DNA of 64,000 nt from contig DATLBS010000030.1 of NCBI GenBank assembly GCA_035526765.1, positions 191,153 through 255,152 of the forward strand. Reading direction: 5' to 3'. The notes below the pieces were generated by a model. It ran no database searches and had not been told where the DNA came from. It saw only the letters and a program-made list of their open reading frames with translations. The stretch is from Thermoplasmatota archaeon (GTDB lineage Archaea > Thermoplasmatota > E2 > JACPAO01 > JAHFTW01). Each line of letters opens with the position of its first letter. Position 1 is the stretch's first letter. A program made the position numbers and the translations under genes. Shown here in pieces: positions 2 to 59,000 of this stretch.

Positions 2-658
2 ATCATCGGCAGCGGACAGGTCGGGCAGACCCTTGCGGCAGGGTTCGCGAAGAAGGGGCACGACGTCGTCCTGGGGACCCGCGACCCGAAGAAGGCGCTC
101 GCGGAGACGAAGGCAGGTCCACAGGGACAGCCTCCCCTGTCGGCGTGGGCGAAGGCGAACCCCAGGGTGAAGGTCGTGACGATGGCGGAGGCCGCGAGGC
201 ACGGCGAGGTGCTGGCTTTCGTGGTGCACGGGGCCGAAGTGGCGGAAGCCGTGAAGCAGGCAGGCGCCGACAACATGGCGGGCAAGCTGGTCCTCGACAC
301 CACGAACCCGCTGGAGTTCGGGCCCGACGGCGCGCACATCCCCAAGGGCATCAAGGATTCCTGCCTGCAGACGGCGCAGCGCGCGGCCCCCGGCGCCCGG
401 TTCGTGAAGGCGTGGAACTGCACGCCGGGCAGCCAGATGGTGGACCCGAAGGAGAAGGGCGACCAGTTCATCTGCGGCGACGACGCCAAGGCCAAGGAGC
501 AGGCGGCGAAGCTCCTCAAGGAGTTCGGCTGGAACGTGCGCGACGTCGGCGACGCCAGCATGGCTCCCTACGTGGAGGGGATGGCGCTCACGGTCATCAA
601 CTGGGCCGCGAAGGCCAACGACTGGGGCTGGGTCGTCAAGGTGCCTGGCGCGAAGTAG
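2..658 (+). CDS. NADP oxidoreductase, coenzyme F420-dependent family (NpdG-like dinucleotide-binding reductase). 5' end is outside the window.
   Basis: The frame is open from base 2 and reads IIGSGQVGQTLAAGFAKKGHDVVLGTRDPKK, a Rossmann GxGxxG motif, followed by the COG2085-like C-terminal domain. Stop at 656-658. Confidence 0.6.
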   Translation: MIGSGQVGQTLAAGFAKKGHDVVLGTRDPKKALAETKAGPQGQPPLSAWAKANPRVKVVTMAEAARHGEVLAFVVHGAEVAEAVKQAGADNMAGKLVLDTTNPLEFGPDGAHIPKGIKDSCLQTAQRAAPGARFVKAWNCTPGSQMVDPKEKGDQFICGDDAKAKEQAAKLLKEFGWNVRDVGDASMAPYVEGMALTVINWAAKANDWGWVVKVPGAK

Positions 659-7395: not shown

Positions 7396-8043
7396 ATGAA
7401 CCTGCTGACGCTCGTTTCATCCCTCGTGCTAGTCGCCTCCACCGCCACCGCCGGCATCCTGGCCGCCCCTCCCCTGCTTGGGACGACGGCTGCCGACGAG
7501 AACCACGGACCCGGCATCGCCATCGGTGGCTGGTGCATCGGCTCCTGCGGCAACCAGACCGGTGGGCAGGACAACTCGACGCACGGCAACCAGACCTCGC
7601 CGCTGCCCCCGCCGCTGGGTGGGCACCAGGGACCCTCCGGCAACCACACCCGCAACCAGACCTCGCCGCCGCCCGCCACCAACCAGACGGCCCCCCCGCC
7701 CACCTGCGGGGTGGAGATCCATGACTCGCGCGACATCGAGGGGCCCACCCGCATCCTGTGGACCTGGATGGTCGGCACCGCCACCACGAACCTCACCGTC
7801 GACCTCAACGTCGATGGCACCTGGGTCCCGATGGGGGGCGGCGCACGCGTGCTCCTGACGGACGGCGACGGCGATGTCGTGGCCAGCTCCTCGAGCTCAG
7901 GGTACGCGCTGCCCTTCGACCACACGTCCATCCGCTACTCGGCGACCGCGGAGGAAGGCCTCGCGTACGGGGAATGGCACCTCACCGTGGAAGCCAATGG
8001 TCTCCTGGGTGGAGCCTACCTCGACGTCCACAGTGCATGCTAA
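7396..8043 (+). CDS. Secreted protein with N-glycosylation sequons and a Pro/Thr-rich segment (hypothetical)
   Basis: Signal peptide MNLLTLVSSLVLVASTATA. Seven N-x-S/T sequons (NQT, NST, NQT, NHT, NQT, NQT, NLT). Ordinary codon usage. Confidence 0.55.
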   Translation: MNLLTLVSSLVLVASTATAGILAAPPLLGTTAADENHGPGIAIGGWCIGSCGNQTGGQDNSTHGNQTSPLPPPLGGHQGPSGNHTRNQTSPPPATNQTAPPPTCGVEIHDSRDIEGPTRILWTWMVGTATTNLTVDLNVDGTWVPMGGGARVLLTDGDGDVVASSSSSGYALPFDHTSIRYSATAEEGLAYGEWHLTVEANGLLGGAYLDVHSAC

Positions 8044-9230: not shown

Positions 9231-9620
9231 GGCGGAGCAGCCGAGACCGTGGATGGCGACGAAGCGGATGGGGGCCGCGAAGCGTCGCCGCGACTTTGGG
9301 ATTGCGGCACGTGGTCGTGGAGGACGAGGAGCATCCCCGCCCAGGAGGTGCTACTTCTGGGCCAGCTGCTCGCGGCGGCGGGGCTTGTCGAACCAGGACT
9401 CAGTGAGGTCCGTGTCGTCGCCGTCGAGGGCGAACGCGTCGACGCCGAGGTGGCGGCGCAGCAGGTTCTGCATCGGGTTGGTCTCGGGCATGCATTCCAC
9501 CGGGAGTCGACCAGGGAGGGAGGCCCCCTTAAGCCCATCTGCGGGGTTCACGGCGGCAGGCGAAACGAAGTCCCTGCGGCGCCGGCAAGAGCCGAACAAA
9601 TCAATCCAACCTGAACATGT

Positions 9621-10175
9621 TCACGTTTCCAGGAGAAGCGGCGCCCAGGCTCTGTGGACCAGGCGGTCATGACTTTCCCGGGGGACGTGGGGCACCAGCT
9701 GCTGGTCGAAGCCGATCCCCCACGCAAGCCGCAGCCGGGGCATCAGCCGGTCGTAGTGGCCACCGCCCCGTCCAAGCCGTCCGCCCGCCCGGTCCCAGGC
9801 CACGCCTGGAACGGTGGCAAGGTCGATCTCCTCCGGCGCCACCGGCGCCTTCCCCACTGGTTGCGGGATGCCTAGCGGTCCCGCCTCGAACCCATGCCAC
9901 CCGTCCACGGCATGCAGCGAGAGCCCGTCCGGCGTCACGCGGGGGAAGAGCACGCGCTTGCTCGCCCGCCACGCGCCATTGGCCAACCCCACCGTCGAGA
10001 ACTCGGGGGGAACGCTGCGGTAAAGGAGCACGGAGCGCGCCGCCCGCCACTCGGGGGAATCCTGGATGGCCGCGGTGAGGAGCTCCTCCTGCAACGCGCG
10101 GCTTGCGGGGGACAGCTTGAGCAGCCGGGCGCGGATGTCCGCCCGCATCGCGCGCTTGAGGGCTGGCACATCCAC
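9621..10175 (-). CDS. 5-formyltetrahydrofolate cyclo-ligase (MTHFS)
   Basis: 184 aa. …IDLATVPGVAWDRAGGRLGRGGGHYDR… matches the MTHFS core (IDLxxVPGVAFDxxGxRLGxGxGYYDR). GTG start at 10175; alternative ATG at 10148. Confidence 0.8.
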   Translation of the reverse strand: MDVPALKRAMRADIRARLLKLSPASRALQEELLTAAIQDSPEWRAARSVLLYRSVPPEFSTVGLANGAWRASKRVLFPRVTPDGLSLHAVDGWHGFEAGPLGIPQPVGKAPVAPEEIDLATVPGVAWDRAGGRLGRGGGHYDRLMPRLRLAWGIGFDQQLVPHVPRESHDRLVHRAWAPLLLET

Positions 10176-10209
10176 GCACCTGCACCGCCGTGCCGCGAAA
10201 AGTCCTTGG

Positions 10210-10222
10210 CCCCCCCCCCCCC
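10210..10222. repeat. C13 homopolymer (G13 on the minus strand) in the 60-bp divergent promoter region between MTHFS and a lipoprotein gene
   Basis: Thirteen consecutive C read directly. Roughly 0.1 such tracts are expected by chance in 64 kb at this composition. Confidence 0.9.
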
Positions 10223-10234
10223 GGTGGCCCCACC

Positions 10235-10699
10235 ATGCGGTTTGTCGCGATAACGGTGTGTATCCTTTTGGCGGGTTGTCTGGGGAACGGTACGGAGAAT
10301 GGGGAAACCGCGACGCGTGGCACTCCTTTGGGATCCTCGACCACAGACGCTTCCACCACGCCTCCAGTCGCGGTGCACATCCACGAGAAGGGGAATTTCA
10401 CTACGGGTGTCGACAGGAGCTGGACATGGACGGTCTCCGAGGGGTCCACGAAGTCGGCGGTCTCGCTTTGCTTGGCCGGCCCCGCCGGAACCTACACGGG
10501 CGACCACTTTGGATATACCCTCAAGGGCCCTGGCGTGATGATGGGGCGCGAACCCATCGATAGCGTCTCTGCTAGCGACACGTCTTCCGACAATTGCTAC
10601 TTCGACGACGTATCCATGTCGCCTGGTGAATGGAAGATGACGTTCAAGGTAAAGTCTGGCGTGGGGACGTACACGGCCGAAGTCACCGTCGAATATTGA
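10235..10699 (+). CDS. Small secreted lipoprotein (hypothetical)
   Basis: MRFVAITVCILLAGCLGNG gives a lipobox (LAGC). A Thr/Ser-rich segment and NGT/NFT sequons follow. 154 aa. Confidence 0.55.
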   Translation: MRFVAITVCILLAGCLGNGTENGETATRGTPLGSSTTDASTTPPVAVHIHEKGNFTTGVDRSWTWTVSEGSTKSAVSLCLAGPAGTYTGDHFGYTLKGPGVMMGREPIDSVSASDTSSDNCYFDDVSMSPGEWKMTFKVKSGVGTYTAEVTVEY

Positions 10700-11110
10700 A
10701 CGGCCCCGCAAGGCGCCACTGCGACTTCACGCGGATGTCGCGGAACACGCGGAGATTTGCCCCCCCGAGCCAGACGCCGCCACCACGAGTCCGCGTTCTC
10801 CGTGCGTTCCGCGTGACGTCTTCGGCGGCGCGGCTGCGCCGCGCCCCAAATCCATCGCTTGCAATACCAACCCGTTGGGCTAGCCGGCCGCGCCGCCGTC
10901 GCAGGAGTGTTTGACTGGTTGGGGGTCTACGACGGACCGATGGGTCGTGCCGGGACCAGGGCGACCCATCCAAGTCATCTGTGGCATCTGTGGGTTCGGC
11001 AGGTCGCGCAACACCGCAACAGGAAACCGCACCTCCCATTCTCTGCGACCTCTGCGGCTGGCAGTCGCGCAGGGCGGAACGCTCATGAGCAATCCTCGCG
11101 TCGCGCCGGC

Positions 11111-12208
11111 ATGGGACAGGACGTCGCCCGCTGGCTGAAGGGCTACGACGCAGCGGACCTCACGATCGCGACCGCGGTGAGCCACTCCAGCCTGCAGATC
11201 TTCCACGGCGCCAAGGCCGAGGGATTCAAGACGCTGGCCATCTCCGCCGGCGACCGCGACGTGCGCTACTATGACGCCTTCCCGCGCGCGCGCCCGGACC
11301 GCATCCTGAAGCTCCCCAAGTACACGGACCTCCTGGCCATGGCGGAGGAGCTCCGGGCGGAGAACACCCTGCTGGTGCCGCATGGATCCCTCGTGGAGTA
11401 CCTGGGCCCGGACAACTACATCAACATCGGGCTGCCCATCTACGGCAACCGCTCGGTGCTGCACTGGGAGTCCGACCGCGACAAGCAGCGCGAATGGCTG
11501 GAGGCCGCCGGCATCCGCATGCCCCGCAAGATCGGCGACCCCACCGACATCCTCGAGCCGGCCATCGTGAAGTACCACGGCGCCAAGGGCGGACGCGGCT
11601 TCTTCATCGCGAAATCGTACCACGACTTCAAGCGCCACATCCAGGAGGGGCAGCCGTACACCATCCAGGAGTTCGTGATGGGCACGCGCTACTACCTGCA
11701 CTACTTCTACAGCCCCCTCGTCCCCGACGGCTACGCGGTCAAGGTCACGGACGCCAAGGGCAAGGAGATCGCCAAGGGTTCCCTGCAGATGCTCTCCATC
11801 GACCGCCGCGACGAGTCCAACATCGACGAGATGAACCGCTTGGGGTCGCTCAAGGACATGGACGAGATGGGCATCGCGCCCACCTTCGTCGTCACCGGCA
11901 ACATCCCCATGGTCATCCGCGAGTCCCTCCTGCCCGAGGTGTTCCGCATGGGCGAGGCCGTCGTCAAGGAGGCCTACAAGCGCTTTGGCGGCCTGTGGGG
12001 CCCCTTCTGCCTGGAGACGGTCGTCACGGACCAGCTGGAGTTCCGCGTCTTCGAGATCTCCGCGCGCATCGTGGCCGGCACGAACCCGTTCATCGGCGGG
12101 TCCCCGTACTCCGACATGATCGAGCCAGGCATGAGCACGGGCCGCCGCATCGCCAAGGAGATCAAGCTCGCGGCCGCCACGGGGCGCCTGGACAAGATCC
12201 TGGGATAG
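11111..12208 (+). CDS. purP: 5-formaminoimidazole-4-carboxamide ribonucleotide synthetase (PurP, archaeal FAICAR synthetase)
   Basis: Aligns end-to-end with M. jannaschii PurP: LTIATAVSHSSLQIFHGAKAEGF vs ITIATLGSHTSLHILKGAKLEGF; …GNRSVLHWESDR…YHGAKGGRGFFIA…IPMVIRESLLP…FEISARIVAGTN…. Start at the ATG at 11111. Confidence 0.9.
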   Translation: MGQDVARWLKGYDAADLTIATAVSHSSLQIFHGAKAEGFKTLAISAGDRDVRYYDAFPRARPDRILKLPKYTDLLAMAEELRAENTLLVPHGSLVEYLGPDNYINIGLPIYGNRSVLHWESDRDKQREWLEAAGIRMPRKIGDPTDILEPAIVKYHGAKGGRGFFIAKSYHDFKRHIQEGQPYTIQEFVMGTRYYLHYFYSPLVPDGYAVKVTDAKGKEIAKGSLQMLSIDRRDESNIDEMNRLGSLKDMDEMGIAPTFVVTGNIPMVIRESLLPEVFRMGEAVVKEAYKRFGGLWGPFCLETVVTDQLEFRVFEISARIVAGTNPFIGGSPYSDMIEPGMSTGRRIAKEIKLAAATGRLDKILG

Positions 12209-25839: not shown

Positions 25840-26100
25840 CCGTACAAGCGGGAAGAAGGAAAGGGAGGAGAGAGGTGTCCGAGGATTGGATGGGAAAAGG
25901 GGTGTCCAAGTGACGGGAAGTGAAGGAGAGGGAAGAGGGAGGTGTCCGAGGATTGGAAGGGAAGAGGGGTGTCCAGGTGATCGGGATGTTGAGAGGGAGG
26001 GGGAGGAGGAAGGTGTCCAGGATAGGGAGAAGGGAGGTGTCCGGGGAGCGGGAAGGGGACGTGGGGGTCCCGGTGGATGGGAAGAGGGAGGGGAAAAGGG
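25840..26100. repeat. Purine-rich tandem repeat: two 67-bp units plus degenerate copies, with six GGTGTCC cores
   Basis: GAGGTGTCCGAGGATTGGA[T/A]GGGAA[A/G]AGGGGTGTCCA[A/G]GTGA recurs at 25871 and 25938. GGTGTCC occurs six times in about 180 bp. The top strand is almost pure purine. Confidence 0.8.
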
Positions 26101-35421: not shown

Positions 35422-35497
35422 GGGCCATTAGCCGAGACAGGTCAATGGCAGCGGACTCTTAATCCGCGATTCATCGGTTCGAATCCGATATGGCCCG
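35422..35497 (+). tRNA. tRNA-Lys (anticodon CUU)
   Basis: Acceptor GGGCCAT/ATGGCCC, D stem GCCG/TGGC, anticodon stem GCGGA/TCCGC with loop CTCTTAA, T arm ATCGG-TTCGAAT-CCGAT, discriminator G. No encoded CCA. Confidence 0.85.
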
Positions 35498-56050: not shown

Positions 56051-59000
56051 TCAGGTCGAGATGGTGAGGCCGGGGAGGCTCCACATCGAGACGCTGCCAG
56101 GGAGCTTGCCCAGGCTGTCATTGAAGGAACCGCCGCTTGAGGGCAGGTCGAGGGCGCCCACGAAGACGCGGCCGTTCGCGAGGGAGGCCCCGCCCAGCAC
56201 CCCGCCGCCAGCGTCCAGGGTCGTGACGAGGCGACCGGTGCGGAGGTCGAAGCCCTTGAGGTGCCCTTCGTAGGTGCCGATCCAGGCCAGGCCGTTGCCC
56301 AGGGCGACGGGGGCGAAGTTCGTCCCGGTGAGCCGCTGCTCCCACAGCAGGTCCCCCGTCCTGGCATCGAGGCCGGCGATGCGGTCGACGTCGGTGGAGC
56401 TCACCACCTCGACGTCCCCGGCGATGCCGCCGGAGCCCACCATGGCGGTGCGCATCTCGAGGAGGTGGCCGCCATGCAGGAGGGACCCCGTGGCCAGGTC
56501 GACGGTCCAGGTGGGGCCGTGCTTCTCCGAGGCGGTCACCACGGGGCGGCCGTCCAGGAACGAGAGGTGCGGGGTCCCGCTGATGTCGCGGTTGATGGCC
56601 CGCGTGGTCGCCTCGGTGTCCTCCTTGTTCGTGTCGTACCAGAAGAACTGGTGCACCCAGACGATGTGGCCGTCCGTGCGGTCGAGCGCCATGAGGGAAT
56701 CCATGTTGGGCGTCTGCGGGGACCCCTCGTTGCCGGGGCTCGTGCCCACGATGACGAGGCCGGAGCCGCCAGGGACAAGGGGGGACGCCCAGACGCGGGC
56801 GCCGGAGCTGGGCTGCGGGGTGGTGGGGACCTGCCATAGCATCTGGCCGGTGGCCGGCACCAGCTTGGCGACGTACCCACGGTCTGCATCGACGCCGACG
56901 AAGAGGTCGCCCCCCTCGAGGATGGGGCTGGCCCACAGGTGTCCGCCGAAGGCCCTGCTCCACACCGTGGCGCCGTTGTCCGTGCGCAGGGCGTAGATGG
57001 TGTTGCCGGCCGCCACGATGACGAGCCCCTGGCCTTCCACGAGGGCGGGCGAGGCGTCGACGTTGGCAGGCAGCGTGACGCGCCACACGACGGTGCCCGT
57101 GGCCTCGTTCAGGCTGTAGAAGGACTTGGCCCAGGTCCCGACGTACACCCGGCCTGCCGCGACGGCGGGGGTGCTGGTGACGCTGCCGTCGACGCGGGTG
57201 CGCCACTGCAGCTCTACGTTGCCGGCGTCCGACGGTCCCGGCAGGGAAGCATCAGGGTTGTTGCGGGTGTTGAAGGTGTCGCGACCATATTGGGGCCAGC
57301 CAACGCTGGTCCCCAGGGGATCGACCAGGGGGGCGGGGGGCAGCGGGGAGGGGGCTGCGCCGGGGGTGGCGGATAGCCTGTCGAAACGCACGCTGGGTCC
57401 TGTGTAGGGGTTCTCGAAGGAGGCCCCCAGCGCGTAGCCGACGCCGGCGACCAGGAAGCGGGTCGTGCCCACGTCCACCGTGGTGCCTTCCAGCGACTCT
57501 GCGACGATGGTGCGGTTGAGCCACAGGTGGACGAGGGGGCCGGTCGTTGCGATCGTGCCCACGCCTTGCACGCGCAGGTCGTACCAGCCGGACTCGCCGA
57601 CCACCAGCGGGGACTCCAGGAACCCGAAGTCGGTGAAGCGCCACCCGGATCCTTCCGCGAGGCCGCCGGAGTGGATGCGGGCCGCGGCGCCCGTGAACGC
57701 GGTCGGAGGCGGGCTGCCCAGCAGCTGCAGGGCGGAGACCAGCACCGGTCCGCCCACGGCGCGGTACGTGACCGTGCGGGGACCGGAGGCCAGGTCGAAG
57801 GGGGTGAGGCAGGGCCGCTCGACGGGGCCGGCCACGCGCGCGTCCTGGACGATGCTGCCCTCCAGCTCGACCTGGATGCGTTGCCGCAGGTTCACGTCCG
57901 AGGGGGTGGCGACCTCGGCCAGGATGTCGCCGGGGCCGCCCATCCACGTGAACTGGATGCTGCGCGACTGGCCGTCGGCCAGCGTGAACGAGGCGCCCGT
58001 GGGGAAGTCGCCGCTGCCGCCTCCGCCGCCGCCCTCGCCGAGGCGCACGACGTCGAGGATGAGGTTGCGGTCCTCGCTGCCGCTGGCCGCGTCGTTGGTG
58101 AACGAGACCCGCACGACGTGGTCGCCGGCGGCGATGCCGGGGACCTGGTAGCCGGTGAGGGTGGCGCTCGAGACCGGGGTGGTGAGCACATCGCTGCCAT
58201 CGACGCGCACGACCATGGTTGGCCAGATGCCGCCCAACGGAGTGCCGCGCGCGACGACGGTGAGGTTGCTGGCCGTGTCGGCGCCAAGGTGGTCCTCGAT
58301 GTAGCCGTTGGACCACAGGTTCCACACTGCACCTGCCGAGGCCGTCCCCGAGAACTGCTTCCCGCCGGCCGTCTTCAGGGCGAAGACCTCCGCCTCGCGC
58401 ACGGCCACGGTGCCCGGCGGCGGGGGCGGGGGGGGCGGCGGGGGCGGGGGCGAGCCGCTGCAGGGGGTCGTCGGGGTGGCGCCGGGCCAGATGTAGCCGC
58501 CGGAGAGCGCCTGCTCGCCGCTGGTGGAGCGTGCCCGGAAGTCGACCTTTGAGCCGGAGGTGACGTGGAAGCTGGCCGCCCATCCCCCCCAGGATTGCTT
58601 GGTGAGGGACACCCATGTGGCGCTGCAGCCCGAGCGCGCATCGACGCCGGCCAGCGGCTTGTTCGCGGCGACGTTGGCCTGCACCCACCACTCGTTGCCC
58701 TTGACGCCGCTGAAGCTGGCCGAGAAATCGCCCGAGGGGGGCGGTGGGGGCGGGGGCGGTGGAGGGGGTGGGGTGGTGCCGGCGCACTTCTCGACGGCGC
58801 CCGGGTGCGTGAACCAGCAGCTCTCGACGACGGATCCGCTGGGGAAGTTGGCGCGGAACCGCACCTGGTGGCCGGCCTCGACGTGGAAGCTGGCGGCCCA
58901 CCACGTGTGGTCGCTGGTCCAGGTCTGCGGCGAGAGCGCCGTCCAGGGCCCGCCCGTGTCCATGGCTTGCACGGCCGTGGCCTTGCCGCCTTCGGTGCCG

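Follow-up and report, generated by a model that had tools for sequence, protein, structure and literature searches.

In bacteria, simple sequence repeat (SSR) tracts of poly-C, poly-G or dinucleotide units are found between the -35 and -10 elements of promoters, as in Neisseria porA and opc, Haemophilus hifA/B and Bordetella fim. In such a -35/-10 arrangement the change of a single nucleotide can toggle the promoter. The archaeal transcription start site (TSS), on the other hand, is measured from a single BRE/TATA block and, to our knowledge, no second upstream element exists in an archaeal promoter. A promoter box of ~26 nt has been described in archaeal 'group D' genomes, including 11 of 11 Thermoplasmata (PMC6028130). 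The leaderless consensus of haloarchaea is CGAAA plus TTWT, and in Haloferax transcripts with a 5' end 0-5 nt before the start codon form the leaderless class (PMC4983044). Phase variation in general was reviewed in 2025, and archaeal phase-variation loci were named there only as future work (PMC11868660). In prokaryotes, among them Sulfolobus islandicus, the indel variability of SSRs has been shown to increase steeply as the tracts become longer (PMC3315296). Prokaryotic homopolymer surveys that include archaea have dealt with coding regions and mainly with poly(A/T) (PMC2831843). The present study describes a run of 13 cytosines between two divergent genes of a Thermoplasmatota archaeon and compares it with these systems.

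Position and rarity of the C13 tract

The window, that is the whole 64-kb stretch of DNA that was analysed, has a GC content of 69.9%. The features around the tract are as follows.

9621-10175, minus strand: 5-formyltetrahydrofolate cyclo-ligase (MTHFS), 184 aa, GTG start (PF01812, 3.8e-34; TIGR02727, 2.6e-36)
10176-10234, no strand: divergent intergenic spacer of 59 bp, from the MTHFS GTG to the lipoprotein ATG
10198-10206, minus strand: BRE/TATA-like box of MTHFS, AGGACTTTT, starting 31 nt before the GTG
10199-10207, plus strand: candidate promoter box AAAGTCCTT for the lipoprotein gene, with its start 36 nt from the ATG
10210-10222, plus strand (G13 on the minus strand): C13 homopolymer, read directly from the sequence
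10210-10231, minus strand (MTHFS-sense): canonical G-quadruplex motif GGGGCCACCG13, found by regular expression (G3+N1-7 x4)
10235-10699, plus strand: small lipobox protein of 154 aa (MRFVAITVCILLAGC...), supported by alignment with the orthologue in relative L063, by the lipobox and by an AF2 model
11111-12208, plus strand: PurP, formate-dependent FAICAR synthetase (PF06849, PF06973; NF009781, 1.3e-156)

The sequence-only reading had described a C13/G13 run between MTHFS and a lipoprotein gene of an archaeon, and the run was confirmed at its place. Its distances from the two genes, given there as 12-25 nt and about 35 nt in a spacer of 60 bp, were also correct, as the tract occupies -25 to -13 relative to the lipoprotein ATG (10235) and -35 to -47 relative to the MTHFS GTG (10175, minus strand). 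The gene names held as well, that of MTHFS by PF01812 and TIGR02727 and that of the lipoprotein by an LLAGC lipobox together with a full-length orthologue. The archaeal origin was borne out by MTHFS, whose 184 residues all match NCBI HUR62504.1, a protein of a Candidatus Thermoplasmatota MAG (100% identity). The GTG at 10175 was taken as the MTHFS start because HUR62504.1 is also 184 aa long, the Pfam and TIGR profiles start at residue 7 of the protein and an M/V-D start is common to 10 of the 16 aligned homologs. The remaining support against the internal Met is the L found at that position in other MTHFS homologs.

The tract is flanked by ...gaaaagtccttgg on one side and ggtggccccaccATG on the other, and its context up to the lipoprotein start is ...CGCGAAAAGTCCTTGG-C13-GGTGGCCCCACC-ATG. 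A homopolymer census of the 64-kb window revealed that C runs of length 4, 5, 6 and 7 occur 293, 91, 25 and 9 times, a roughly geometric drop, after which the next length is 13. The longest G run is 8, and C13 is the sole homopolymer above 8 in the window. Runs of 8 or more are depleted, with 2 observed against an expectation of 12.5 (first-order Markov) to 18.8 (iid). Compared with the actual run-length distribution of the window, C13 is a clear outlier. In dinucleotide-preserving shuffles 0.05 C13 or G13 runs are expected per window, and at least one was obtained in 4 of 100 shuffles; from composition alone, it would be no surprise to meet roughly one of them in a 1-2 Mb genome. The tract was not reported by TRF at a score threshold of 30. 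A search of the window with Rfam gave nothing near the tract and only one tRNA (35422-35497).

Two other repeat-rich regions were observed in the window. One is G-rich (58414-58457), contains the G8 run (58428-58435) as well as (CGGGGG)n-like repeats, and has the top G4Hunter score of the window. The other (25855-26100), a purine-rich and apparently intergenic tandem repeat, has 2.5 copies of a 67-bp unit (TRF score 236), and G/A-rich repeats of 24 and 12 nt come after it.

With 13 C the tract exceeds the length of about 8-9 nt from which the mononucleotide tract of a contingency locus would be expected to be hypermutable. Like the hypermutable homopolymers of the surveys (PMC2831843, PMC3315296), it far exceeds the length at which runs become depleted and indel-prone. 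It differs from them in being an intergenic poly(C) of an archaeon with 70% GC, whereas the surveys concern coding and mostly poly(A/T) runs; we infer both its hypermutability and any effect on expression.

Promoter geometry on the two sides of the tract

A crude set of window genes, filtered by GC1 > GC2, was used to look for A/T-rich hexamers upstream of candidate starts. It was found that 26 such hexamers lie 27-31 nt before the starts, while each single distance of 14 to 26 nt has 0-1. A de novo motif search in 19 promoters of the window and its relatives gave a 9-mer, AAGCCTCAT, whose start falls at -33+/-1 in 12 of them and within -30 to -35 in 15. Genes in this genome thus appear to be leaderless, with a BRE/TATA-like box that starts about 33 nt before the start codon, and this spacing matches both the 'group D' promoter box (PMC6028130) and the haloarchaeal picture (PMC4983044). 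The boxes of the lineage are GC-adapted (AAGCCTCAT, CTCATSA, CTTTTS, CCTTAT and ATTCAAG) and would imply mostly leaderless mRNAs.

The two genes of the divergent pair differ in how well they fit this architecture. The position weight matrix (PWM) was trained on a small set, hand-picked partly for boxes at that distance, and its scores are therefore partly circular; on this scale the MTHFS box scores 9.6, where the 99th percentile of random 33-nt windows is 8.9. The same box is also found as an A/T-rich hexamer at a distance of 28 nt, within the genome-wide peak of 27-31 nt, and AGGACTTTT at 31 nt can be assigned to the archaeal leaderless BRE/TATA class. The candidate box of the lipoprotein gene reaches about the 90th percentile of the same random windows (score 4.4), a weak match, and it lies 3 nt beyond the modal distance of 33 nt. 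AAAGTCCTT overlaps the MTHFS box on the opposite strand of the same A/T island. As this is the only A/T-containing element in the 59-bp spacer, it is the sole candidate box for the lipoprotein gene, and the C13 fills the interval between it and the ATG.

On the MTHFS side the G13 lies upstream of the box. Since the tract is upstream of 10198-10206, its length should not alter the geometry of the MTHFS core promoter. The tract had been proposed to lie where a TATA-to-TSS spacer would be and to change promoter spacing for one or both genes. The first of these proposals is supported for the lipoprotein gene with its weak candidate box, in a genome with apparently leaderless genes and boxes at a fixed distance, and fails for MTHFS; as to spacing, MTHFS drops out as well. 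The analogy with bacterial phase-variable promoters turned out to be weak. There, two elements have a spacing that is set by the tract, whereas the 59-bp spacer has one A/T-containing element, and the promoters of the genome show one archaeal box each, the distance of which from the starts is fixed. Contingency loci have their tracts in the core promoter or the 5' coding region, and the C13 has such a placement with respect to the lipoprotein gene, downstream of its sole candidate box, and lacks it with respect to MTHFS.

Compared with archaeal leaderless BRE/TATA promoters, the likeness therefore lies in the fixed distance from box to start, into which MTHFS fits well. The differences are that the boxes here are GC-adapted, and that the lipoprotein box is weak, 3 nt beyond the mode and followed by 13 C where the relatives have mixed sequence.

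The lipoprotein gene and its slot in related genomes

The product of the downstream gene has a signal peptide and an LLAGC lipobox (MRFVAITVCILLAGC) that agrees with the pattern [LVI][ASTVI][GAS]C, and by this motif it is a putative lipobox lipoprotein. An exhaustive HMMER search among 1.84 billion representatives gave 12 relatives at E<=1e-3, the best with 46% identity. This best relative is located in L063 in the same order of MTHFS, lipoprotein and PurP. Once this orthologue is translated from its true ATG, it can be aligned over the full length of the window protein, from Met1 through the final residue (45% identity, E 3e-45). All family members with an N-terminal signal region have the lipobox Cys. 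Other family motifs are W.W.V, G.W and a nearly invariant C-terminal V.V.Y. The AF2 model, for which the family alignment was the input, is confident (pLDDT 83.4, above 90 in most of the domain) and predicts an all-beta sandwich. A Foldseek search of this model against the PDB gave generic beta-sandwich matches only, all with E > 1e-3, and the protein had no Pfam or NCBIfam match. On this evidence the ORF can be regarded as a real gene, with ATG 10235 as its start.

A word-indexed search of a 5.8-billion-protein collection gave no homolog of the lipoprotein, and exact-protein look-ups of its 154-aa and 169-aa versions and of the 184-aa MTHFS gave no match. As the lipoprotein is absent from that collection, its gene has apparently been left without annotation both in the source MAG and in a contig of a separate Logan assembly; the gene callers of both would seem to have skipped it. 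Its GC3 is 0.72 against 0.82-0.96 in six measured neighbouring genes, while that of the L063 orthologue is 0.89; this points to a gene of atypical composition that was missed by gene callers.

It should be noted that a conserved secreted protein of about 205-215 aa, with a linker rich in NxT/S and Pro, is encoded at 7396-8043 (plus strand) and is distantly similar to the beta domain of the lipoprotein. It has counterparts in L004 (5514-6137), L005 (5361-5981), L007 (2211-2846) and L062 (4365-4982), and its promoter box, (AC)TAGGTT(C/G)CTTATATT, is near-identical in the window and in these four relatives.

Relatives of the locus were reached through MTHFS homologs (60-76% identity) and through the lipoprotein homolog, and a scan of genome contigs gave one usable relative, L001. 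The eight related loci amount to 45.8 kb (45,775 bp). A metagenome scan with the MTHFS alignment yielded only distant relatives, with 27-51% identity in the best segment against 60-76% for Thermoplasmatota, and was dominated by the generic pattern GGRLGRGGG.

A lipoprotein orthologue lies between MTHFS and PurP in L004, L005 and L063 as well as in the window (3-4 of 8 relatives). MTHFS is directly divergent from PurP, without the lipoprotein gene, in L061 (which has the closest MTHFS, 76%), L062 and L001, and the slot in L007 holds a 65-aa signal-peptide ORF. The lipoprotein gene is thus an accessory, fast-evolving gene in a variable slot. On the PurP side of the slot, about 410 bp between the lipoprotein stop and the PurP ATG (10700-11110) are non-coding and contain a C7 run (10760-10766). 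Rfam gave no match in 10700-11110. The last ~40 bp before the PurP ATG, with the box CTCATGAG, are conserved with the relatives. On the other side, a conserved small ORF of 46 aa (MPETNPMQNLLRRHLGVDAFALDGDD...) without a Pfam family lies directly downstream of MTHFS (9351-9491, minus strand). Its counterpart of 46-58 aa is called at the same position in L004, L005, L006, L007, L061, L062 and the Logan contig, and a similar sequence is also found in L001.

No homopolymer longer than 7 was found in the eight related loci (45.8 kb), and no C10 or G10 in the 63 fetched loci. The tract is absent at the orthologous lipoprotein promoter in L063, L004 and L005. In L063, the closest relative with a lipoprotein gene, the spacer measures 103 bp and holds two separate boxes, compared with 59 bp in the window. 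In L063 and L004, the two loci read in detail, both genes of the divergent pair have boxes of their own, those of the lipoprotein genes lying at -34 and -32, without a homopolymer. A DNA pattern of flank, gap and flank had no match in metagenome contigs. With no tract at the orthologous spacer in any of these relatives, it is not a conserved device. The intergenic DNA of the relatives cannot be aligned beyond the coding starts.

Origin and possible effect of the tract

With a confidence slightly better than even, we regard the tract as a genuine, lineage-specific and recent product of slippage that has at most a tuning effect. The poly(dC:dG) run would most likely have grown by replication slippage inside a compressed divergent promoter. 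If the TSS is set by the distance from the box, the length of the tract would set the 5' end of the lipoprotein mRNA relative to the ATG. Since the box exceeds the modal distance by 3 nt, this 5' end is predicted to lie a few nt before the AUG, and at C13 about 3 nt upstream of the ATG, within the 0-5 nt leaderless class. A stretch made up of G:C pairs only, so near the DNA to be melted, should make initiation weaker. Slippage by +/-1-2 would bring only a modest retuning of the 5' end and of expression, whereas the loss of about 5-6 C or more would leave the TSS downstream of the A of the AUG, and the lipoprotein would be silenced. The MTHFS core promoter would stay unaffected by the tract. 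The expected effect of a length change would thus be graded and not a switch of the bacterial -35/-10 style.

An alternative is that the tract is a selected contingency locus, in Archaea the counterpart of bacterial SSR promoters with phase variation, in which slippage stochastically varies the expression of a surface lipoprotein through the TATA-to-start distance of a leaderless mRNA. The tract length of 13 is well above the range in which mononucleotide runs are depleted in the window, and the gene whose core promoter holds the tract encodes a secreted, fast-evolving and variably present lipobox protein. Genes of this class are typical of bacterial phase-variable loci (PMC11868660). On the other hand, the orthologous promoters in L063, L004 and L005 have no tract, the lipoprotein genes of L004 and L063 have ordinary boxes, and there is no second long tract in the 64 kb of the kind that a recurrent set of loci (phasome) would show. 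In addition, a change of +/-1 is not expected to toggle an archaeal promoter, and a spacing 3 nt beyond the mode is on the tolerant side. Non-conservation may be compatible with an adaptive switch that evolved recently, but on balance selection for switching is unlikely. That the locus works as an archaeal contingency locus, with the 5' end shifting on, near or past the AUG and giving heritable and reversible variation of a surface protein, is considered decidedly unlikely.

An artefact of sequencing or assembly is also conceivable: the organism may lack a tract of about 13, or the tract may mark a chimeric junction. The sequence comes from a short-read MAG, which carries a third-party ('TPA') annotation label. 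Homopolymers are error-prone, and two-colour Illumina chemistry yields poly-G artefacts. A 13-nt run is shorter than the usual k-mers of assemblers, however, and reads must therefore contain the flank, the tract and the other flank. Moreover, the tract is interior to a contig of 264,642 bp, and the order of MTHFS, lipoprotein and PurP across it is the same as in L004, L005 and L063. A 3,631-bp contig of the separate Logan assembly of SRR8554898 runs from ~10515 through the tract into MTHFS. This contig encodes MTHFS (175-aa query match) and extends ~367 bp upstream of the internal ATG, as judged from gene coordinates. An artefactual or chimeric join is thus unlikely, and we hold this explanation as a whole to be highly improbable, although the exact count in a single MAG consensus could be off by a base or two. 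The tract could instead act as a structural element, a G-quadruplex/i-motif or a rigid poly(dG:dC) block that insulates or modulates the back-to-back promoters. GGGGCCACCG13 matches the G3+N1-7 x4 motif, and no other region of the window has a G4Hunter score as negative as that of the tract (-2.56). A window of 70% GC contains 24 such canonical motifs, though, so that the one at the tract is not distinctive; a stronger score occurs elsewhere (3.04 at 58414-58457), the relatives have no G4 counterpart of the tract, and a structural role appears very doubtful.

If the lipoprotein started at the GTG at 10190, which is in frame with it and without an intervening stop, the tract would be coding (PPPP) and slippage would frameshift the N-terminus. 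Such a start would place the MTHFS promoter box inside a coding region, and it is opposed by the alignment of Met1 at ATG 10235 with the L063 orthologue. The n-region ahead of the hydrophobic stretch and lipobox is short in 10 of the 12 family members that keep the signal peptide and long in the other 2. Even after a frameshift from GTG 10190 the ATG at 10235 would still be usable, and a coding tract is barely credible. A recent, genuine slippage product is the reading retained here, and in the absence of any sign of a conserved or selected switch the tract is best read as a recent mutational by-product.

What this locus shares with bacterial SSR promoters is the location of a long mononucleotide tract within the core promoter of a divergent surface-protein gene, where slippage would change the geometry. 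It differs in that a single BRE/TATA block is present and the TSS is set by distance; a shift of the 5' end would be expected here and not a lost contact with a sigma factor. A further difference is that the tract is unconserved, has no second locus in the window and is known from the consensus of one MAG. At present the case amounts to a single homopolymer, unconserved, from one short-read MAG, and an archaeal switch is not yet demonstrated. Although phase variation by SSRs is well established in bacteria, the same cannot be said of archaea, and a validated archaeal SSR promoter switch would be new. If its length were variable and it governed the lipoprotein, the tract would provide a concrete archaeal example with a distinct mechanism, namely the TATA-to-AUG distance of a leaderless mRNA.
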